A stretch of 18,947 bases of DNA from a virus (IMGVR_UViG_2547132415_000019:1-18947), one strand, 5' to 3'. Positions 1-13,178 are shown, counted from the stretch's first letter. Made by a program: numbers and translations. Notes: a model not told the origin generated them from the sequence alone.

Positions 1-1053
1 TTACGGGGTAATGCCAACCGCTGCCGCCACTTTGTCGCCACTTGGCAGCGTTGCCAGAGGGTTGAAACGGAGCGCCGTTTCCAGATGATCCGGTGCCAGA
101 TGTGCGTAACGCATCGTCATTTTTATATCGTGATGCCCGAGAATTTTTTGTAAGGCCAGGATGTTTCCACCCGACATCATAAAATGCGCCGCAAACGTAT
201 GACGCAGAACGTGTGTCAGTTGACCGCGAGGGAGCACGATAGACGTTTTTTCCATCACGGATAAAAATTGAAAATAGCAGTCTGTAAAGAAATTGAACCC
301 ATCAAGTGCCATAATCTCTTCGTAAAGCTCTTTACTGATGGGAATGCTTCTGTTTTTCTTCCCCTTCGTTCTGACAAAGGTAATTCGGTATTTAGTCACC
401 TGTGAACGGGTAAGATTTATTGCTTCTCGCCAGCGTGCGCCTGTGCTTAAGCATATCTTGACTACCAGTGCCAGAATTGGGTCCTGACGTTTGCAATCAG
501 CCAGCAATTCAACAATCTGTTCATGGGTAAGCCATGCCATCTCTTTTTCTGCGATGGTGAATTTTCGCATGTTCTCCAGTGGGTTCGGATACGACCATTC
601 GCCCAGGCGGGATAGTTCGCTAAAAACACTACTTAGATAGCTTTGCTCCAGGTTAACGGTGACCGGGCTTGCTCCTTTCTTCCATTTTTCGCTGAAGTAG
701 ATCTCTCCTGTCAGGCGTTTATCTCGATAGTGGGCAAACATTTTAGAGGTGAGATCGGTTGCAATGGGATTTCCCAGAGCGTCAACCATCAACAGCAATT
801 TGTCATAGACATGCTGCCCAGCCGTCAGAGATTTACCATGTAGTTTGAACCATAGCTCAACCACGTCTTTCAGTGTTCGACGATCCACTGATTCACCCAG
901 CCAGGGTTTTGCTTCGGTTTCTTCCATCGTGTGACGCTCAAAAGCCAATGCTTCACCCTTAGTTGCAAACTGCTTACGCACACGCCGCCCATTGCGCCCG
1001 GCGGGGTAGCATTCACAAATCCATTTACCTGTGTTGAGTTTTCGTACTGCCAT
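1..1053 (-). CDS. int: Tyrosine recombinase / phage integrase
   Basis: 350 aa ORF. C-terminal catalytic region has LTHVLRHTFA (His-x-x-Arg) and MRYAHL (catalytic Tyr). Sits at the prophage end next to the repressor. Confidence 0.9.
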   Translation of the reverse strand: MAVRKLNTGKWICECYPAGRNGRRVRKQFATKGEALAFERHTMEETEAKPWLGESVDRRTLKDVVELWFKLHGKSLTAGQHVYDKLLLMVDALGNPIATDLTSKMFAHYRDKRLTGEIYFSEKWKKGASPVTVNLEQSYLSSVFSELSRLGEWSYPNPLENMRKFTIAEKEMAWLTHEQIVELLADCKRQDPILALVVKICLSTGARWREAINLTRSQVTKYRITFVRTKGKKNRSIPISKELYEEIMALDGFNFFTDCYFQFLSVMEKTSIVLPRGQLTHVLRHTFAAHFMMSGGNILALQKILGHHDIKMTMRYAHLAPDHLETALRFNPLATLPSGDKVAAAVGITP

Positions 1054-1135: not shown

Positions 1136-2476
1136 TCATTGGAGCAAGAAAACTTTTAAGGTGTTTTTGAATATTCTAACAGGGTCTTCTACACCTGCAT
1201 TTCCTTTTAAAATATGATAATCACTTATTTCAGCCCATCTGTTTTTTTCATCGTTTTCAGAAGGAAGTAAAGGAGAACCTTCTGGCATATATTTATAAGT
1301 TATACCAAATAATGCATAATAGTAGATGTTGATGTTATATTGATCTGTCTGATATGGGAGTCTATTAACACCGAAGAAATTGATTATTAATTGTGCATCT
1401 ATTTTATCTTCTACGTAGTTAAGGGCCAGTTCACGACCAAACGAATAAAGAATTACTGCAAGGGTTCGATAACAGCAATAGCCTGGTATAAATTTATTGC
1501 TGATTTCATTTTGAGATAAAATTTGATAAATTTCTAGATATCTTGATAAGGTTTCAACTTCCCGTAGCGACAAGCCTTTTAGTTCGATAAATTTTTGAAC
1601 TATATGAATACTACTTTCTCCAATTTCTTTTAGTCTTTCAGACTCGTTACATAGCATTCTAAAATGAGAGTTCGAAGCCAAAATTTTATCGTAATTGTTT
1701 TCAGTGAAAGTCACTGGCAGGCTGTAAGTGAATTTTATAAATTTATCAAGATATCTTTCTGAGTCAACACCTGCACCGTAAATATGATTTATTGATGCTT
1801 TCAATTGTGAGATGTTAGCAACTAACAAGAAGTTAAGATTTTCAGTGTCAAAAACATGTTTTATATTTTCGATGATAGAGATGGCAAAGCTTGGTTTACA
1901 ACGGTCAAGTTCGTCAATGATAATTGTTATTTTATTTTCGCTAGTTAGTTCAGCAAGTACTTCCTTGAGAGCAAGCAAATGTTTCTTTGCTTCAATATGA
2001 TCATCAAGCAGTGCTTCTACAGTACCATCTATAGCTGAGTTAGCCGCATCTTTAATAGCATCTTCGAATTCATCCGCAATATCATCTGCATTTTGTTTTA
2101 AAATCCACCCAGCGCCAGCTTTGAGTACAGTTTTAAGTCCAAATCTCAATGCTGGTAATGCCTTTGATATTAATTCCTTCTTTTCACTCTCTGGATATAA
2201 TGCAACTATTGCAGCCATTATAGTAAGTATGGGAGCATCATTATGATCTTCAGTAAATGCATCAATATATACTACTTTATGCCCAGATTCATTTTTTTCA
2301 ATCAATGCCGCTAATTTTTTTGAAAATTCGGTTTTACCGGTACCCCAGTCCCCATCGATAACAATAGGGGATATTTTTAAGGGGGACTCGAGTAAGCTTA
2401 TTATTTTTTCAGCAATGATTTTTCTATTATACTCATCTCTGTTTTCAAAAGTCATATCATTATTCATATGAAGCAA
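1136..2476 (-). CDS. KAP-family P-loop NTPase (cargo gene)
   Basis: 446 aa. Walker A GDWGTGKTEF; Walker B-like hydrophobic stretch ITIIIDELDRC; an Ala/Gly/Leu-rich segment between them (ALPALRFGLKTVLKAGAGWIL) as in KAP NTPases. Markedly AT-rich by eye compared with the phage core. Confidence 0.8.
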   Translation of the reverse strand: MLHMNNDMTFENRDEYNRKIIAEKIISLLESPLKISPIVIDGDWGTGKTEFSKKLAALIEKNESGHKVVYIDAFTEDHNDAPILTIMAAIVALYPESEKKELISKALPALRFGLKTVLKAGAGWILKQNADDIADEFEDAIKDAANSAIDGTVEALLDDHIEAKKHLLALKEVLAELTSENKITIIIDELDRCKPSFAISIIENIKHVFDTENLNFLLVANISQLKASINHIYGAGVDSERYLDKFIKFTYSLPVTFTENNYDKILASNSHFRMLCNESERLKEIGESSIHIVQKFIELKGLSLREVETLSRYLEIYQILSQNEISNKFIPGYCCYRTLAVILYSFGRELALNYVEDKIDAQLIINFFGVNRLPYQTDQYNINIYYYALFGITYKYMPEGSPLLPSENDEKNRWAEISDYHILKGNAGVEDPVRIFKNTLKVFLLQ

Positions 2477-2478
2477 CC

Positions 2479-2664
2479 TTAGTTTTTAGAACATATTTTC
2501 TTTGACTTGCTTGGCGTTCCATCATTGCAAACGAACTTCCCATCAGATGTACAATGTGAAACTCCCCCTTTCTTACCAGAACATGGATAATTTTTTGCAA
2601 AACTTGTAATAGGTAAAGTAATAAATAAACAAATAAGTAGGATATGTATAGATTTATAAAACAT
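2479..2664 (-). CDS. Small Cys-rich secreted peptide (signal peptide + ~38 aa Lys/Cys-rich mature part); alternative start at 2682
   Basis: Minus-strand AAGGAAA sits about 6 nt upstream of the second ATG (2664). Encodes [23 protein letters not shown] then [38 protein letters not shown] (4 Cys). Its stop lies 3 nt from the KAP NTPase start, so it is probably co-transcribed. Confidence 0.5.
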
Positions 2665-2687
2665 ATTTATTTCCTTATACATTAATT

Positions 2688-5431: not shown

Positions 5432-6285
5432 GCACCATCCTGAAATGGGCGGGAAATAAAACCGCCGTAATGTCCGAACTGAAAAAACATCTTCCTGCTG
5501 GTCCGCGACTAGTTGAACCTTTCGCGGGTTCCTGTGCTGTGATGATGGAGACGGATTATCCCTGCTATCTGGTTGCGGATATTAATCCTGATTTAATCAA
5601 CCTCTATAAAAAGGTTGCCGCTGATTGTGAATCGTTTATATCTCGCGCCAAAGTTTTATTTGAGATCGCAAACAGGGAGGTGGCTTATTACAACATAAGG
5701 CAGGAGTTTAATTACTCAACTGAAATTACTGATTTCATGAAAGCGGTATATTTCCTGTATCTCAATCGTCACGGTTACCGTGGGTTATGTCGCTATAACA
5801 AGAGCGGGCATTTCAACATTCCCTACGGTAATTATAAAAATCCGTATTTCCCTGAAAAAGAAATTCGCGCTTTTGCAGAAAAAGCCCAGCGAGCAACGTT
5901 TATCTGCGCCAGCTTTGATGAAACGCTGGCGATGTTGAAGGCGGGGGATGTGGTGTATTGCGATCCGCCTTATGACGGTACGTTTTCCGGCTATCACGCT
6001 GACGGCTTTACTGAAGATGACCAGTATCACCTGGCATCCGTTCTTGAACATCGGTCATCAGAAGGACATCCGGCCATTGTTTCTAACAGTGACACATCCC
6101 TGATCCGTTCGCTGTATCGCAATTTTACTCACCACTATATCAAGGTAAAACGCAGCATCGGCGCAGCAGCTGGTGAGAGTAAATCAGCAACAGAAATCAT
6201 TGCTGTTTCCGGACCGCGCTGCTGGGTGGGATTTGATTATTCGCGTGGCGTGGATAGTTCTGCCGTGTACGGAGTACGTGCATGA
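5428..6285 (+). CDS. dam: DNA adenine (N6) methyltransferase, Dam-like
   Basis: N-terminal SAM-binding region (LKWAGNK ... [10 protein letters not shown]) and catalytic DPPY motif (VYCDPPYDG). ATG at 5428 overlaps the upstream stop (ATGA) and its own stop overlaps the A start. Confidence 0.85.
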
Positions 6286-8696
6286 GCCATGCCGATATGA
6301 GCAACTGCTGCGGCTTTAACGAGGCTGCCGCATCGTTCTCATGGAACAGCCCGAAAAAGGCCATTAACCCTTATCTGGACCCGGCGGAAGTTGCGCCGGT
6401 TTCTGCGCTTTCAAACCTGATCACTCTGTACGCTGCCGATAACGAGCAGGAACAACTGCGCCGCGAGGCACTGAGTGATCAGGTCTGGGAGCGTTATTTC
6501 TTTAATGAATCCCGTGATCCTGTCCAACGCGAAATAGAGCAGGATAAGCTCATTAGCCGGGCAAAGTTGGCGCATGAGCAGCAGCGTTTTAACCCGGACA
6601 TGGTCATTCTGGCAGACGTCAGCGCCCAGCCCTCCCATATCAGCAAGCCGCTGATGCAACGTATTGAATACTTCAGCAGCCTGGGCAGGCCAAAGGCTTA
6701 TTCCCGCTATTTACGTGAGACGATTAAGCCATGTCTGGAACGACTGGAGCATGTACGCGACAGCCAGCTATCTGCATCTTTTCGTTTTATGGCAAGCCAT
6801 GTAGGGCTGGACGGCCTGCTGATTCTGCCTGAAATGAGTCAGGATCAGGTGAAACGCCTGTCTACCCTTGTCGCTGCGCATATGAGCATGTGCCTTGATG
6901 CAGCTTGTGGTGATTTGTATGCCACCGATGACGTTAAGCCAGAAGAAATCCGCAAGACATGGGAAAAGGTGGCAGCGGAAACCCTGCGTCTGGATGTCAT
7001 CCCGCCTGCGTTTGAGCAACTCCGCCGGAAAAGAAACCGCCGTAAACCCGTGCCCTATGAACTCATTCCGGGTTCGCTGGCGCGTATGTTGTGCGCCGAC
7101 TGGTGGTACCGGAAATTATGGAAAATGCGTTGCGAATGGCGGGAAGAGCAGTTGCGTGCTATCTGCCTGGTCAGCAAAAAAGCATCTCCCTATGTCAGCT
7201 ATGAAGCCGTGATGCATAAACGTGAGCAGCGCCGCAAGTCACTGGAGTTTTTCCGTTCTCATGAACTGGTGAACGAAGAGGGCGACACGCTGGATATGGA
7301 AGACGTGGTAAACGCCAGCAGCAGCAACCCGGCGCACCGCCGCAATGAGATGATGGCCTGTGTTAAAGGTCTGGAGCTTATCGCGGAAATGCGCGGTGAC
7401 TGCGCCGTTTTCTACACCATTACCTGTCCGTCACGTTTCCATTCCACGCTCAATAACGGCAGACCAAACCCAACTTGGACAAATGCGACGGTAAGACAAA
7501 GCAGCGATTATCTGGTCGGCATGTTTGCTGCATTTCGTAAGGCGATGCACAAAGCCGGGTTGCGCTGGTATGGCGTGCGGGTGGCTGAGCCGCATCATGA
7601 CGGTACAGTTCACTGGCACCTGTTGTGTTTCATGCGCAAAAAAGACCGCCGCGCCATTACTGCATTGTTGCGTAAGTTTGCCATCCGTGAAGACCGCGAG
7701 GAACTGGGTAATAACACTGGTCCACGCTTTAAATCTGAGCTGATAAACCCGCGCAAAGGAACGCCGACAAGCTACATCGCGAAATACATCAGTAAGAACA
7801 TTGACGGGCGTGGTCTGGCTGGCGAGATCAGCAAGGAAACGGGTAAATCCCTGCGTGATAACGCTGAATACGTTAATGCCTGGGCGTCTCTGCATCGTGT
7901 TCAGCAATTCCGCTTCTTTGGTATTCCGGGACGTCAGGCTTACCGTGAACTTCGCTTGCTGGCTGGTCAGGCGGCAAGGCAACAGGGTGACAAAAAAGCA
8001 GGTGCGCCGGTACTGGATAACCCGCGCCTTGATGCCATTCTGGCTGCTGCTGATGCTGGTTGTTTTGCCACCTACATCATGAAGCAGGGCGGCGTACTGG
8101 TTCCCCGCAAATATCACCTCATCAGAACCGCTTATGAAATCAACGAAGAGCCAACCGCCTATGGCGATCACGGTATTCGTATTTATGGCATCTGGTCACC
8201 CATTGCAGAGGGCAAGATCTGCACTCATGCAGTGAAGTGGAAAATGGTTCGTAAGGCCGTTGACGTTCAGGAGGCGGCAGCCGACCAGGGCGCTTGCGCC
8301 CCTTGGACTCGTGGCAATAACTGTCCCCTTGCTGAAAATTTGAACCAACAAGGGAAAGACAAATCAGCTGATGGGGATACCAGAACGGACATTACCCACA
8401 TGGATGACAAGGAGTTGCACGATTACCTGCACAGTATGAACAAAAAAGAGCGCCGGGAACTGGCTGCAAGGTTACGCCTGGTGAAACCGAAACGGCGTAG
8501 AGACTACAAACAGCGAATTACAGACCATCAACGACAGCAGCTCGTCTATGAACTGAAGTCCAGAGGATTTGATGGCAGCGAGAAAGAGGTCGATTTACTC
8601 CTTCGCGGCGGCAGTATTCCGTCAGGAGCAGGCCTGCGTGTCTTCTATCGGAACCAGCGTTTGCAGGAAGATGATAAGTGGCGGAACCTGTATTAA
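6282..8696 (+). CDS. A: Replication initiation endonuclease (P2 gpA-like rolling-circle protein)
   Basis: 804 aa. [12 protein letters not shown]-type tyrosine motif and HWHLL His motif as in P2 A-family proteins; position after the early operon. Confidence 0.85.
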
Positions 8697-8790: not shown

Positions 8791-8806
8791 CTGTAAATAT
8801 AAACAG
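8791..8806. promoter_or_regulatory. LexA (SOS) box CTGTAAATATAAACAG overlapping a sigma70-like promoter
   Basis: Exact CTGT-N8-ACAG with an AT-rich core. Upstream TTTACA (8766-8771) and TATACT (8787-8792) could be -35/-10. A second degenerate half-site (ACAG at 8818-8821) follows. Confidence 0.7.
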
Positions 8807-8849: not shown

Positions 8850-9038
8850 ATGCAGGACTATTTTTTGGAGTCTTTGAAGCTCCAGCGCATTGATTTTTTT
8901 CTTAAGCTTGTAGCGGCTAGTGAGTGTAGTGATGAAGAGAAGGGGCTGGCCCTGCAGTGGGTTTCTGAATTGACTGATGAACTCATGGCAAAAATCAGAA
9001 GCCACGAATACAACCGCTCAATGGATGTCATCAGCTGA
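8850..9038 (+). CDS. Small hypothetical protein, first gene of the SOS-controlled module (possible Tum-like N-terminal part)
   Basis: GGAGG 4-5 nt upstream of the ATG at 8850; 62 aa. The ORF-track start at 8748 would read through the promoter and LexA box, so it is unlikely. Confidence 0.5.
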   Translation: MQDYFLESLKLQRIDFFLKLVAASECSDEEKGLALQWVSELTDELMAKIRSHEYNRSMDVIS

Positions 9039-9048
9039 GGTGACTTTT

Positions 9049-9282
9049 ATGCGCATTGAAATAATGATCGATAAAGAGCAGAAGATTAGCCAGTCTACCC
9101 TGGACGCTCTGGAGTCCGAGCTTTACCGCAACCTGCAACCCATCTATCCCAAGACCGCTATCCGCATCCGTAAAGGGTCGGCAAACGGCGTTGAGCTGAG
9201 TGGCTTAAAGCTTGATGAAGACAAAAAGCGGGTGATGGAAATTATGCAACAGGTTTGGGAAGACGACAGCTGGCTGCACTAA
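9049..9282 (+). CDS. DinI-family protein (phage Tum/MsgA-like, SOS-associated)
   Basis: 77 aa starting MRIEIMIDKEQKISQSTLDALESELYRNLQ ... EDDSWL, matching the DinI fold pattern (MRIEV...L...EL..R......WE..D.W). GAGGTG upstream of the ATG. Confidence 0.8.
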   Translation: MRIEIMIDKEQKISQSTLDALESELYRNLQPIYPKTAIRIRKGSANGVELSGLKLDEDKKRVMEIMQQVWEDDSWLH

Positions 9283-9400
9283 GGAACGTTCCTGATGTAA
9301 GAACTTGAATCTGACGTCAGCAAGGTTGAACAACGAGAGTAGCGAGGCGTTAGCCATGGGTAAAAAAGACAGTAATCACCAGATTATTTATCGGGGCTAG

Positions 9401-9616
9401 GTGCTGGAACGTTTAACCCTTGGCGACTGGGTCTTCTTTCAACGCCCAAAGGAGTGTGGCGGAGGTTTTTGGTTGGGCCGCATCTATGAAGACTGCTTCT
9501 GGCTTGAGCTGGAATTCCCCGTTTCGCTATATGACGGCCTGGGGTTTTTGATGGAAGTCACTAGGGTAGAGCAGAGAAGTGATGAGGTTGACGCGAATTA
9601 TCCCCTGTTTGATTAA
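9401..9616 (+). CDS. Hypothetical small protein (71 aa, GTG start)
   Basis: ORF only; no recognisable motif. Confidence 0.35.
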   Translation: MLERLTLGDWVFFQRPKECGGGFWLGRIYEDCFWLELEFPVSLYDGLGFLMEVTRVEQRSDEVDANYPLFD

Positions 9617-9664
9617 AAATGTATTAGCTTATAATGGAATACTATTTTTGCAGGTGGGGGCGCA

Positions 9665-10276
9665 ATGGATTTAGTCTTTAAAGTTCTGGCTTCGTTGGGT
9701 GGGGTGTCTTTTGTTGCATCTGGCATATTTGTTTGGATCGGGAAAGTTTATTTAGAAAGATATAAGTCGCGGCTAAACAAAGATATTGCTGAATTTCAAT
9801 CACAACTGAGTGCAACTAATGAAAGAATAAAGGCTAAGTTAGACAATTCTGTTTATGTAACGAAAGCGTATTTTGATAAGGAGTTATCAGCATATAGTCT
9901 CATTTGGAATTCGATGTTTGAAACCAGAGAAAGCGTGCTTAAGCTGAGGCCTGCGCTGGATCATGTTGACCCCAACGAACCATTTGAAGAGAGAAAATTT
10001 AGAAGGTTGAAAGTTTTTTCTGATGCATTTAACACTTTTGTTACAAGTGTTGAATCTAACAAACCGTTCATCTCACCAGAGGTTTATATAATCTTGGACC
10101 GTTTCCGGAAGGAATGCCTTTCAGAGTCAATATCGTTTAAGCATAGCGATCCAGAATTTGACGGGCAAAATTATTGGAAAGAGGCGGAGTTGAACCATAC
10201 AACCATCATCAAGCTTTTTGATGAGACGTGTGATGCAATTCGAGACAGGATGCACACATTAACTGTGGTTACGTAG
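9665..10276 (+). CDS. Single-pass membrane protein with N-terminal TM helix and coiled-coil-like region (cargo; function unknown)
   Basis: 203 aa. Residues about 5-27 are hydrophobic (VLASLGGVSFVASGIFVWIG). AT-rich. G-rich stretch upstream of the ATG. Confidence 0.65.
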   Translation: MDLVFKVLASLGGVSFVASGIFVWIGKVYLERYKSRLNKDIAEFQSQLSATNERIKAKLDNSVYVTKAYFDKELSAYSLIWNSMFETRESVLKLRPALDHVDPNEPFEERKFRRLKVFSDAFNTFVTSVESNKPFISPEVYIILDRFRKECLSESISFKHSDPEFDGQNYWKEAELNHTTIIKLFDETCDAIRDRMHTLTVVT

Positions 10277-10368
10277 GTTTCCAAAAAGTCTCGATGCCCG
10301 CTTTGGAGATTGTGCATGTCTATGCCGCATGAATCCGCATGATCGTTTGAGGATCGTTTTAGCTGAGG

Positions 10369-10392
10369 CCCGCCAGGAGTGGCGGGATTTTG
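10369..10392 (+). terminator. Candidate intrinsic terminator downstream of the membrane-protein gene
   Basis: CCCGCC (10369-10374) / GGCGGG (10381-10386) stem with 6-nt loop, followed by ATTTTG. Confidence 0.35.
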
Positions 10393-10585
10393 CTTATGTC
10401 ATGCAGGCGCATGAAAACCGCTACATAAAGCGGGCAGGCGTGGCGGGGATACGAGCGCGCGCTAACTCTTGGCTTTGTTTCATAATCAAAAATGTGATCA
10501 TTGAGATTATTCTGAATTTTATGTTTGTCTATGAAATATCATTTCGCTTAACATTGTTTGAGTTAGGACTACATGAGAATAAAGA

Positions 10586-11161
10586 ATGCTTTTACCCGTA
10601 AGTGTTACATCGTGTGGCTTGTATCACCCCTACTGGCATTTGGGAGAGCGCAACCCTCATAGCGATGAACTATCAAGGCAGATGATGGATTTTAAGGATG
10701 AAAATAATCGTAATCATCAAAGGGCTATTAACCGTTTTTCTCGATTAGCTATAGATAAGGTTGGGCGGTTAGTAATCAGAGGTGGCGGTGGGCGTTTTGT
10801 TGAGTCTCCTTTTTCGATAGCAGTCGTCCCATCTCACACTGAAGGCAGAATTTCACCGGCTTTGATTGAGGTCGCCGAGCGAATCGTAAATGTTCACCGT
10901 CGGGGCATTGTTGATTGCTGTTTGGAAAGAACACGCACTGTTCCTAGCGCACATCGTGAAGGAGGAGATCGCTCAATTACTGGTCACATGTCTAGTATCA
11001 GAGTTAGGGGTGGTAACCTCATGGGGCGAAATGTGTTACTACTAGATGATGTTAAAACAACAGGCGGTAGTTTGTCTGCGTGTTTTTATTTACTGGAGTC
11101 TGCAGGAGCTGGAGTTATAATGCCATTAGCTCTGCTAGAAACTGCAAACTATGAGGAGTAG
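10586..11161 (+). CDS. Phosphoribosyltransferase (PRTase)-domain protein, ComF-like (start uncertain)
   Basis: C-terminal type I PRTase PRPP-binding signature NVLLLDDVKTTGGSL. 191 aa. Stop overlaps the DprA-like start. AT-rich. Confidence 0.75.
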   Translation: MLLPVSVTSCGLYHPYWHLGERNPHSDELSRQMMDFKDENNRNHQRAINRFSRLAIDKVGRLVIRGGGGRFVESPFSIAVVPSHTEGRISPALIEVAERIVNVHRRGIVDCCLERTRTVPSAHREGGDRSITGHMSSIRVRGGNLMGRNVLLLDDVKTTGGSLSACFYLLESAGAGVIMPLALLETANYEE

Positions 11162-12125
11162 CAAAGTGCACTCAGAAGAATTAAAAAATACACTTGGATT
11201 AGCTATTCAAATCGGGAAGCTAGCATCTGATCAAAGTGTATTGAAATTCTTTGAGCTTATTGATTTTGATGTTATTCGTGATATACGCGACTTAACTGAG
11301 ATGGTTAATAGCCACGGGTTTCTAAAAGATAAAATATCTGAGACTGATTTTCTAATAGCGAATGCTGAATTGGAGAACCACCATGTTAATGGTGTGGAGC
11401 TAATACCATATGGGTCTGAATTCTATCCTCTTAGTTTAGCGTTTACTCCTAATCCACCATCAATTCTCTACATAAAAGGGGATAAAAGTATACTAAAAGA
11501 ATTGCCGGGTGTCGCAATTGTAGGATCCCGTGATACTTCCCCTGCAGGGGAAGAAATAACGAGGCGAATCACTAATCAGATAGTGTCTGCTGGGTATATT
11601 GTTGTAAGTGGGTTAGCAATAGGCACTGATGCGAATGCTCATAAGGCAACGTTACAAGCAAAAGGAAAAACCATTGCTGTCTTGGCGCATGGTCTTGAGG
11701 AGGCTAAGCCGAAGCAAAACAGTCGACTTGCTCAAGAGATTCTGGATAAAGGTGGTGCATGGATTTCTGAGTATCCTATGGGTCGACCGGCCCAGAAACA
11801 ATCATTTGTACAAAGAAATCGGATACAAGTTGGATTATCTGCAGGTTCAATTTTAATCGAGGCTGCGTTAAATAGCGGAACGATAACTCAAGCTGAGTTT
11901 GCAAATAAGGCGAAAAGACCAGTGTTTGCGGTTGTACCTCACCTACCTAATAATCCGCTTAATCTTAATTGTGAGGGAACAGTTGATTTAGTTAAGAGCA
12001 ACATGGCTAGAGCGTTAAAAACAAAACGGGATTATGATGATGTGATTATGATCATAAATGAGTCTCGGGAGTATTTGTTAGAGCTAAAATGGCCAGGGAA
12101 ACAGAGTACATTAGACTTGATTTAA
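11151..12125 (+). CDS. DprA/Smf-like (SLOG superfamily) Rossmann-fold protein (alternative GTG start at 11166)
   Basis: 324 aa. GVAIVGSRDTSPAGEE ... VVSGLAIGTDANAHKATL matches the DprA motif pattern (G.R......G ... SGLA.GID..AH). ATG overlaps the PRTase stop by 11 nt; GAGGAG precedes the GTG at 11166. Confidence 0.8.
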   Translation: MRSSKVHSEELKNTLGLAIQIGKLASDQSVLKFFELIDFDVIRDIRDLTEMVNSHGFLKDKISETDFLIANAELENHHVNGVELIPYGSEFYPLSLAFTPNPPSILYIKGDKSILKELPGVAIVGSRDTSPAGEEITRRITNQIVSAGYIVVSGLAIGTDANAHKATLQAKGKTIAVLAHGLEEAKPKQNSRLAQEILDKGGAWISEYPMGRPAQKQSFVQRNRIQVGLSAGSILIEAALNSGTITQAEFANKAKRPVFAVVPHLPNNPLNLNCEGTVDLVKSNMARALKTKRDYDDVIMIINESREYLLELKWPGKQSTLDLI

Positions 12126-12149: not shown

Positions 12150-13178
12150 CTAAATTTGATATCTCTCGAATTTTATAATTTCTTCACCGCTCCAATGATT
12201 AAATTCTTTCATTCTTTTTTGTAATGGTAATAATTCATTTTTCACAAATACCTTACTAGCTTTTTCTACATCCCCAAATCCCCCAACATTATTAGGCATT
12301 ATCCCCATCATCTGTGGCGGAACGCGATGTGCTGCCATCATGTCATCCCGGCTCACGTTCTTGATATTTAGAAACTCATCCTTCGCCGCAACTTCTGACA
12401 AAGGGATGATCTGAAGGCCGTCCTTTTTGCCGTTAGGCGAGTACATAAACAGGTTGCGGAAGTTACCCGGACCTTTGGCACTTTTCATTGCATTGCGGAG
12501 GTTGTTCACGTCCTCCTGGTTCTGCGCAGCATCGGTCATGTACATGATGAAGCCTGCATGACTACCGTTAATGTAATACTTGCGGCGGAACAGCGTGGCG
12601 GACTCATTGAGCAGGGCGGACGGAATGGCAGAAAGATAGCCGGGCAGGCCGTAGATCTCCTGGTTAATGTCCGGTTCCATCAGATGAAAAATGCTGCCTT
12701 TCGTGAACTGATACGGCTGGGTTGTCATACCGTATTGCACAAACCAGTAGGTATCCAGGTCTAACCCGCGTCGGGTGTATTTTGCCAGAGCAGGCTCAAG
12801 GGCGATAACTTCACCGAAGCGGTTCGTGCGTTTCTCCAGGTAGGCGTTACCAAATACCAGATAGTCCTGCACAAAACGTGAAAAAGCCTGCTGGCTGAGC
12901 AGCGGGTGAGGGATGTAGGTACTGGTCAGAATGTTGCATTTTACTGCAATCGGTGAGCTGTGATGCACGGCAGCGCGGAAGGTTCGTGCCAGTCCGTCAA
13001 AGCTGACGGGCGGCTCATACCAGCGGTCCATCTGTACGCATTCCACATAGTCCAGCAGTTCACGGCGGTCCAGAACAGGAACGGGATCGCCAAAGCTGAA
13101 TGCTTCGGCTGAAGTCTGGCTTTTATGCTTGAGCTGATTCGTCGCCGCAGCGCGGTTTTTCTTACTCTTTCCCATCAA
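12150..13178 (-). CDS. Q: Portal protein (P2 gpQ-like)
   Basis: 342 aa. Position and orientation, with its start overlapping the stop of the upstream terminase gene, are as in P2; N-terminal region resembles gpQ as recalled. Confidence 0.85.
   Translation of the reverse strand: MMGKSKKNRAAATNQLKHKSQTSAEAFSFGDPVPVLDRRELLDYVECVQMDRWYEPPVSFDGLARTFRAAVHHSSPIAVKCNILTSTYIPHPLLSQQAFSRFVQDYLVFGNAYLEKRTNRFGEVIALEPALAKYTRRGLDLDTYWFVQYGMTTQPYQFTKGSIFHLMEPDINQEIYGLPGYLSAIPSALLNESATLFRRKYYINGSHAGFIMYMTDAAQNQEDVNNLRNAMKSAKGPGNFRNLFMYSPNGKKDGLQIIPLSEVAAKDEFLNIKNVSRDDMMAAHRVPPQMMGIMPNNVGGFGDVEKASKVFVKNELLPLQKRMKEFNHWSGEEIIKFERYQI

Follow-up and report, generated by a model that had tools for sequence, protein, structure and literature searches.

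The 18,947-nucleotide (nt) viral DNA analyzed here (IMGVR_UViG_2547132415_000019:1-18947, called the window below for its whole length) is a 186/P2-like prophage of Escherichia coli, and it carries, between a DinI-family gene and the cos region, an open reading frame (ORF) for a single-pass membrane-anchored protein of 203 amino acids (aa), ORF203. Our analysis establishes that ORF203 is a real, functional gene under purifying selection, and that it is independent both of the two-gene Shosta system encoded on the other side of cos and of the small ORF that precedes it. It furthermore shows that cos divides the hotspot between gpA and gpQ into two independently swapping cargo slots. With respect to function, we tentatively propose, with somewhat less than even confidence, that ORF203 is a stand-alone, prophage-encoded factor for phage exclusion that works on the inner side of the membrane. 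A preliminary description of this stretch had presented the protein as an orphan membrane protein of an AT-rich prophage cassette, grouped with a small upstream ORF, a terminator-like hairpin, and possibly the downstream gene pair; the first part of this picture stands, and the grouping is revised here.

Conservation and expression of ORF203

A lack of conservation in related cassettes would have spoken against the preliminary description; instead, ORF203 is intact in all 31 related loci. The ratio of nonsynonymous to synonymous substitution rates (dN/dS) ranges from 0.07 to 0.13, with 0.11 between the window and Enterobacter and 0.07 between the Enterobacter P2-like prophages and a genomic island of Enterobacter cloacae. 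A Shine-Dalgarno-like GGTGGGGG lies 5 to 12 nt 5' of the start codon.

The GC content is 0.38 to 0.39 across positions 9601 to 10200 versus 0.51 to 0.56 in the upstream gpA gene, which bears out the AT-rich cassette of the earlier account. In its deviating base composition (0.38 versus 0.52 to 0.55 nearby) and its insertion between the conserved DinI gene and cos, ORF203 is like a moron.

The promoter-like element TTGATT-N15-TATAAT found upstream of the gene is kept in the Enterobacter P2-like loci, in the non-P2 E. cloacae island, and in an E. coli prophage remnant; two of these copies differ by a single change in the -10 hexamer. This element, a consensus match only, is not listed by our promoter scan because the scan requires a spacer of 16 to 18 nt, but it may serve as ORF203's own promoter. 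Additional expression could come from SOS-induced read-through out of the operon formed by a 62-aa gene and the DinI-family gene, since this LexA-box-controlled operon lies upstream on the strand of ORF203, with only a weak hairpin between the two. The only hairpin with a T-run downstream of ORF203 belongs to the cos region.

A large unannotated family of membrane-anchored helical proteins

Searches of Pfam, NCBIfam, and PADLOC returned no family at threshold for ORF203, the matches at E values of ≤1 being coiled-coil noise only, and a sequence search of the PDB gave no match. Neither sequence nor profile similarity was found to the described exclusion and abortive-infection families (SieA, SieB, Imm, and the PADLOC models). 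The sole named match is PHROG 26391, which is annotated as "unknown function." In many E. coli genomes the protein goes under the name "valyl-tRNA synthetase" (RefSeq WP_020218871 and WP_000366630), which we reject as a misannotation because its only basis is a subthreshold match to Val_tRNA-synt_C reflecting coiled-coil resemblance (residues 31 to 68; 16.7 bits against a cutoff of 25.9; E value, 0.009).

As to remote homology, a profile search that covered 1.84 billion representatives of clusters at 50% identity placed ORF203 in a large unannotated family, with 919 cluster representatives at E values of ≤1e-3 and 385 at ≤1e-10, nearly all of them 190 to 225 aa long and aligned end to end. A word-indexed search retrieved enterobacterial relatives only (at least 66% identity), none with a precomputed Pfam domain or an informative name, and a profile search of contigs with a narrower alignment retrieved five loci only. 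An alignment of 108 diverse members shows no variation at E73 and P134 and hardly any at W81, L94-R95-P96, F135, E154, I192-R193, and R195; D99, R114, Y170/W171, N177, and C189 are frequent.

Hydropathy and AlphaFold2 (AF2) modeling agree on the architecture anticipated by the preliminary description, a single N-terminal transmembrane (TM) anchor followed by an all-helical remainder. Residues 7 to 25 form the sole hydrophobic segment (mean Kyte-Doolittle value, 2.01; ≤0.3 elsewhere), and an N-terminal hydrophobic helix is found in 133 of 145 full-length relatives. The AF2 model, with a predicted local distance difference test (pLDDT) value of 81 from 10 sequences and of 92.3 from the 108-sequence alignment (predicted template modeling score, 0.71), consists of a continuous helix from residue 2 to 92, comprising the anchor, the stalk, and the first bundle helix, and of helices 107 to 131, 138 to 160, and 168 to 200, which complete an up-down four-helix bundle. 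Judging from the order of the helices in the model, the conserved polar positions would cluster in two places, with R95-P96, D99, E154, and Y170-W171 at the membrane-distal tip and E73, P134-F135, and R193/R195 at the membrane-proximal end. Searches of BFVD gave weak matches to uncharacterized phage proteins.

In 87% of the family members, lysine and arginine are richer just after the hydrophobic helix than before it, a bias that predicts an N-out/C-in orientation. About six residues are thus predicted to be periplasmic, with the basic juxtamembrane stretch, the stalk, and the bundle in the cytoplasm.

Three further assignments were considered and rejected. A HEPN-like bundle had been considered for the motif IRDRMH, but the family consensus, IRxRI, lacks the His, and no profile matches. 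An anti-sigma-factor-like or chemoreceptor-like sensor would require another domain order and topology. As for a holin, the prophage has an HP1-type holin in its lysis cassette, and ORF203 lies outside that cassette.

Many unannotated phage proteins of 200 to 300 aa (L079 to L150 of our loci, from IMG/VR and mostly on human-gut contigs) have only an N-terminal module in common with one subgroup of the family. The module consists of a TM helix and (E)KGKNLATKEDIxEIT, and other helical C-terminal parts lie beyond it. Of 10 proteins scanned, eight belong to this class (seven of them share the N-terminal module only), and none of these eight matched Pfam or PHROG; the remaining two are ordinary family members that match PHROG 26391.

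ORF203 is independent of its neighbors

The preliminary description had placed a 71-aa ORF ahead of ORF203 as part of the same unit. An ORF of this length with a GTG start is indeed present (9401 to 9616), but it is the tail of an 86-aa phage ORF interrupted by an amber codon; phage Cartapus has CAG where the window has TAG. The amber codon is found in 12 E. coli loci, including the window, whereas the 86-aa ORF is intact in seven Cartapus-like copies and has lost its start codon in one more. In Enterobacter, every copy lacks the ATG and is disrupted by a frameshift and stops; only the last ~25 codons remain in the non-P2 island, and the ORF is missing from L012. The intact 86-aa gene forms a separate small family in P22-like, SSU5-like, and Klebsiella phages that have no ORF203 relative. 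Since most loci have this ORF cut by the amber codon, frameshifted, or not at all, and since its family of phage genes is an unrelated one, we reject it as a partner or antitoxin and regard it as a decaying neighbor of ORF203.

A decayed small neighbor is also what broken toxin-antitoxin pairs leave behind, and the single TM helix of ORF203 is rich in small residues, as in pore-forming peptides. It is nevertheless highly improbable that ORF203 is an addiction-type membrane toxin or a piece of decaying junk hitchhiking beside cos. Purifying selection extends across all 203 aa, a length far above that of type I toxins; the conserved positions concentrate in the soluble domain and not in the TM helix; and no context examined contains a conserved antitoxin partner.

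Of 5426 complete E. coli genomes, 1268 have conserved the unannotated segment of ~152 bp that follows ORF203 on the 3' side. The segment aligns with the right end of P2 through the annotated 19-nt cosR (GGCGAGGCGGGGAAAGCAC in P2 and GGCGTGGCGGGGATACGAG in the window), and the bases after this cohesive-end homolog match the left end of P2 (TGCGCGCTGAC versus CGCGCGCTAAC). By this alignment, the segment is the cos packaging site of the prophage. The terminator-like hairpin that the preliminary description had noted after ORF203 is present, 93 nt past the stop codon, but it lies inside the cos region and is common to prophages without ORF203, and it is therefore not part of the ORF203 cassette.

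The same region accounts for "ORF90," which we reject as a gene because it overlaps cos. Its conservation across loci is limited to the first ~135 to 140 nt, with similarity ending at the cos boundary, and it is probably not a gene. "ORF90" matches PHROG 28685 (E value, 3e-25), a group that may have been built from translations of noncoding cos DNA. Both PHROG 28685 and the RefSeq name "valyl-tRNA synthetase" appear to be artifacts.

Mapping cos by alignment with P2 cosR and cosL puts ORF203 at the position of tin and old in P2, and because cos lies between ORF203 and Shosta, the two stand at opposite ends of the packaged genome, ORF203 at the right end and Shosta at the left end. The gpA-gpQ hotspot is accordingly divided into slot A, from DinI to cosR, which in the window holds ORF203, and slot B, from cosL to Q, which holds Shosta. 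Slot A is variable among E. coli P2-like prophages, as expected of the prophage cargo slot described earlier. It may be empty or filled with a GNAT acetyltransferase, a DUF6236 protein, an 883-aa HsdR-N protein, or other hypothetical proteins, and in P2 itself it contains tin and old. ORF203 is polymorphic there, being present in 41 of the 5426 E. coli genomes compared with the 1268 that have this cos (~3%). In BL21(DE3), the same cos segment is flanked by a St85-family retron in the cosL-Q slot.

How independently the two slots swap became clear when we compared the cargo of 28 P2-like loci with ORF203 from E. coli and Enterobacter. The block made up of the 86-aa ORF remnant, ORF203, and cos is constant, whereas the cargo that follows differs, and identical ORF203 alleles adjoin at least 14 different cargo sets. 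The types of cargo after cos comprise DUF4145 (PD-T7-4-like), a KAP NTPase (PDC-S49), AAA_22 (PDC-S59), RelA_SpoT (PDC-S33), AbiU/AIPR, PDC-M03, a retron (STM3845 plus reverse transcriptase), an OLD-like ATPase, AAA_21 with RloB, a Schlafen/AlbA_2 protein, and proteins without an assignment. Six Enterobacter loci encode an identical 203-aa protein beside five different cargos, and phage Cartapus has ORF203 with no cargo after cos. Among the 28 loci, Shosta follows ORF203 in the window only.

These data bear directly on the earlier suggestion that ORF203 is a sensor or effector partner of the adjoining phosphoribosyltransferase (PRTase)/DprA pair, that is, a membrane-bound third component of Shosta. 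The two are adjacent in the prophage, and a second lineage, ~80% identical, keeps the order ORF203-cos-ShosTA in a prophage remnant joined to an integrase fragment. In that remnant (L056), however, the reading frame of ORF203 is broken by frameshifts and stops, whereas both ShosT (79%) and ShosA (83%) keep their full length. Moreover, a DprA-PRTase pair from this hotspot was protective as a two-gene clone (PMC9122126). With cos in between, identical alleles beside many other cargos, and ORF203 decayed where ShosTA is intact, we reject ORF203 as a Shosta partner; the idea is already largely refuted and retains hardly any credibility. The remnant (L056, 3651 to 6545; E. coli 2015C-3121 and ~10 other genomes) resembles a Shosta that has been domesticated, with the pseudogenized ORF203 joined directly to a P2-type integrase fragment and followed by cos, intact ShosT and ShosA, and then host genes.

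The constancy of ORF203 beside varied cargo might instead indicate a counter-defense or self-protection factor, for example, one that restrains the toxicity of hotspot cargo in general. Accessory regions of phages mix defense and antidefense genes, and ORF203 is the fixed left-hand neighbor of many defense cargos in both E. coli and Enterobacter prophages. Yet phage Cartapus has no cargo to restrain, ORF203 also occurs in non-P2 contexts that lack recognizable defense neighbors, the same kinds of cargo occur without ORF203 in most P2-like prophages, and Shosta is intact where ORF203 has decayed. We therefore consider this explanation improbable.

A possible role in phage exclusion

Our proposal of a stand-alone exclusion factor draws on the locus, on the bias of the family toward mobile elements, on the autonomy of the single gene, and on its architecture. 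Relatives of ORF203 are mostly on mobile elements, in lysogeny or accessory positions, and they are very rare in isolated phages (3 of 50,697 records) and in plasmids (1 of 72,556). In Kosakonia and related satellite-like elements, a homolog follows a P4-type integrase and AlpA and precedes, at some distance, AAA_25; in a circular element of Lactiplantibacillus plantarum that resembles phage-inducible chromosomal islands, the order is integrase, hypothetical protein, homolog. One context combines HigB/HTH and HNH-WYL with the homolog and an integrase, and in another the homolog adjoins an integrase fragment. In E. cloacae, the homolog lies in an island beside smpB. Further relatives are found in Pseudomonas phage Riah, near the CI region, and in Clostridium phage Maintenon.

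ORF203 is a swappable, stand-alone accessory gene lodged between the SOS-controlled DinI operon and cosR, in the slot that P2 uses for its exclusion genes. In the scenario proposed here, the conserved polar positions of both groups in the bundle would bind a component of the infecting phage; alternatively, the target may be the phage's entry machinery or its membrane-associated machinery at the inner membrane face. Binding would lead either to a block at the site of entry or, through oligomerization of the anchor and loss of membrane integrity, to abortive infection.

Several observations weigh against an exclusion function. ORF203 has no homology or experimental link to any defense protein and no PADLOC match, its accessions were not found in the text supplements of the DefensePredictor and PD-system papers, and Table S5A of PMC9122126 contains it as "hypothetical" only. 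Of the other occupants of the DinI-cos interval, GNAT and DUF6236 are not known defense genes, and the hotspot as a whole holds nondefense cargo as well, such as partition systems and toxins (PMC9122126). The four-helix bundle is generic, with no informative structural neighbor, and the topology is based on hydropathy and the positive-inside rule only. If next to nothing of the protein is periplasmic, a classical block of DNA injection from the outside is unlikely. Finally, two diverged lineages from peat metagenomes have a relative between cysD and cysN, and one lineage has the order Rv0078B, homolog, radical-SAM HemN. The relatives between cysD and cysN are ~30% identical to ORF203 and tightly packed within sulfate assimilation operons (L014 to L017, 7001 to 7588; L020 to L022).

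Some of these observations would fit accessory cargo outside defense, namely, a lysogenic-conversion or phage life cycle helper at the membrane, which might, for instance, modulate the physiology of the envelope or membrane, or a role in the SOS-induced state. Such a role would suit a gene that shares its strand with a LexA-box-controlled operon directly upstream, with a weak hairpin between, in a hotspot that also receives nondefense cargo (PMC9122126), and that matches no defense family while some of its relatives reside in housekeeping operons (cysD-X-cysN and upstream of the radical-SAM HemN gene). However, a gene present in ~3% of the genomes with this cos is not needed for the phage cycle, and the near absence of the family from isolated phages, contexts that are mostly integrase-proximal accessory slots, and a promoter-like element of ORF203's own also argue against it. 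We regard a nondefense role as the main rival of the exclusion proposal, though as somewhat less probable.

A bolder extension of the exclusion-factor proposal, which we consider doubtful, is that ORF203 founds a family of single-gene, membrane-tethered sensor-effectors, each a minimal one-protein abortive-infection device. Such a family would span at least 919 clusters at 50% identity from Proteobacteria, Firmicutes, Bacteroidota, and Acidobacteria-like lineages of peat. The conserved Glu/Arg/aromatic site of the bundle would sense either a component of a phage or a small metabolite that is phosphorylated or sulfated, and recognition would switch the glycine/serine-rich anchor into a membrane-disrupting oligomer. 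The metabolite option is hinted at by the recurrent placement between cysD and cysN and by the Arg-rich conserved positions. This reading would also imply kinship to the wider set of gut-phage proteins with the TM + KGKNLATKEDI N-terminal module.

Prophage setting

Complete E. coli chromosomes contain DNA identical to the window, and the genes were read from the RefSeq annotation of one such chromosome (Table 1). ORF203, between gpA and gpQ and beside cos, occupies the position of the cos-proximal hotspot of P2-like phages (Rousset et al. 2022), described in PMC9122126.

Table 1. Features of the window and layout of the ORF203 protein
Feature	Position	Strand	Basis or remarks
Integrase	1-1053	-	RefSeq annotation of identical DNA
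Genes after integrase			One cargo gene, then CI, CII, Fil, then Dam; RefSeq annotation
gpA, replication endonuclease	6282-8696		RefSeq annotation of identical DNA
LexA-box-like site	8791-8806		Perfect CTGT-N8-ACAG; precedes 62-aa/DinI operon, on the strand of ORF203
62-aa gene	8850-9038	+	RefSeq annotation of identical DNA
DinI-family gene	9049-9282	+	Pfam DinI, 3.8e-24
Pseudogene remnant of 86-aa phage gene	9356-9616	+	PHROG 2100; ATG at 9356, amber at 9398-9400
Promoter-like element TTGATT-N15-TATAAT	9609-9635	+	Consensus match; overlaps last codons of decayed upstream ORF
ORF203, membrane-anchored, single-pass	9665-10276	+	PHROG 26391; ATG ORF, 203 aa, 612 bp
cos region of prophage	10312-10466	.	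Alignment to P2 cosR/cosL; 19-nt cohesive-end homolog at 10437-10455
"ORF90" (probably not a gene)	10329-10601	+	First ~45 codons are cos DNA, remainder cargo specific
Terminator-like hairpin	10369-10386		7 bp, 6 GC, then ATTTTGCTT
ShosT (PRTase)	10586-11161	+	PADLOC ShosT, 3.6e-14
ShosA (DprA-like)	11151-12125	+	PADLOC ShosA, 2.8e-70; Pfam DNA_processg_A, 1.4e-60
Portal gene Q	12150-13178	-	Followed by terminase, capsid, and lysis genes
ORF203 protein layout (predicted)	Residues ~7-26, ~27-64, ~65-200		TM helix, then basic juxtamembrane stretch; helical stalk; four-helix bundle; from hydropathy and AF2

The LexA-box-like site just ahead of the 62-aa/DinI operon is reminiscent of the SOS-controlled tum operon of phage 186. 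A second perfect CTGT-N8-ACAG site is located at 1087 to 1102, between the start of the integrase gene and a KAP NTPase gene. The interval between int and CI (1136 to 2682, minus strand) is a further cargo slot, which in the window holds this KAP-family P-loop NTPase (1136 to 2476; PADLOC PDC-S20, 1.1e-171; also PifA-like). A 67-aa ORF that is rich in Cys and has an N terminus resembling a signal peptide precedes it. A near-identical prophage in NZ_AP022215, which carries ORF203 too, has a DUF4041 (SNIPE-like) gene instead of the KAP NTPase gene in this slot. In Enterobacter P2-like prophages, a gene of the 3'-phosphoadenosine 5'-phosphosulfate (PAPS) reductase family lies directly upstream of gpA (L007 to L009, 3883 to 4929). 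Pseudomonas phage Riah, which encodes a distant relative of ORF203, has a PAPS-reductase-family gene ~3 kb away, possibly by coincidence.

Comparison with known systems

The closest positional counterparts of ORF203 are tin and old of P2, which likewise lie between the gene A region and cosR, in a nonessential, variable slot of the cos-proximal hotspot (PMC9122126). There is no sequence or domain kinship, Old being an ABC-ATPase/TOPRIM protein and Tin being soluble. Furthermore, transcription of tin and old runs leftwards from a promoter of their own, and ORF203 runs rightwards, after the DinI operon. Exclusion activity has been shown for tin and old and is proposed for ORF203.

In predicted layout, ORF203 resembles SNIPE/PD-lambda-1, in which a short periplasmic N terminus is followed by a single TM helix and a long, helical part in the cytoplasm and which provides the experimental precedent for an N-out, single-pass defense protein that faces the cytoplasm (PMC13190303). 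The SNIPE-like DUF4041 gene mentioned above also sits in a P2-like accessory slot, between int and CI. However, SNIPE is a nuclease bound to the membrane, with DUF4041 and GIY-YIG domains, and in the 203 aa of ORF203 neither domain nor any recognizable catalytic module was detected.

Small, prophage-encoded membrane proteins that exclude phages from lysogens as single genes include P22 SieA, HK97 gp15, and Tuc2009 Sie2009 (PMC10883804). ORF203 shares their size class, genomic origin, and membrane location but has no sequence similarity to them and no match to Pfam SieB or others, and SieA has three TM helices. ORF203 would be nearly absent from the periplasm, where injection conduits assemble.

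In fold, the bundle is similar to sensors of the 4HB_MCP type (Tar/Tsr, TorS, and Adeh_2942) and to FAT domains, at 3% to 13% identity, and the Pfam 4HB_MCP profile has no match in ORF203. The 4HB_MCP sensors are periplasmic, between two TM helices, whereas the bundle of ORF203 follows a single anchor and is predicted to be cytoplasmic. As the four-helix fold is too common, the similarity implies no homology.

Shosta, finally, shares the hotspot with ORF203 and is its immediate neighbor, but it is a self-sufficient two-gene system across cos that neither requires ORF203 nor is coinherited with it. Both the hotspot and Shosta were already known. The hotspot has yielded several new defense systems, and unknown genes taken from it were often positive when tested (PMC9122126; PMC13586616). 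To this map we add the division by cos into two independently swapping slots and, in ORF203, a new candidate cargo with a sizable unannotated family behind it. ORF203 makes a clean candidate: it is a single 612-bp gene under strong selection, with a confidently predicted fold, and mobile elements carry hundreds of its relatives, all lacking annotation. Should phage challenge prove positive, it would give a name to a new family and offer a very small membrane-anchored system to dissect.

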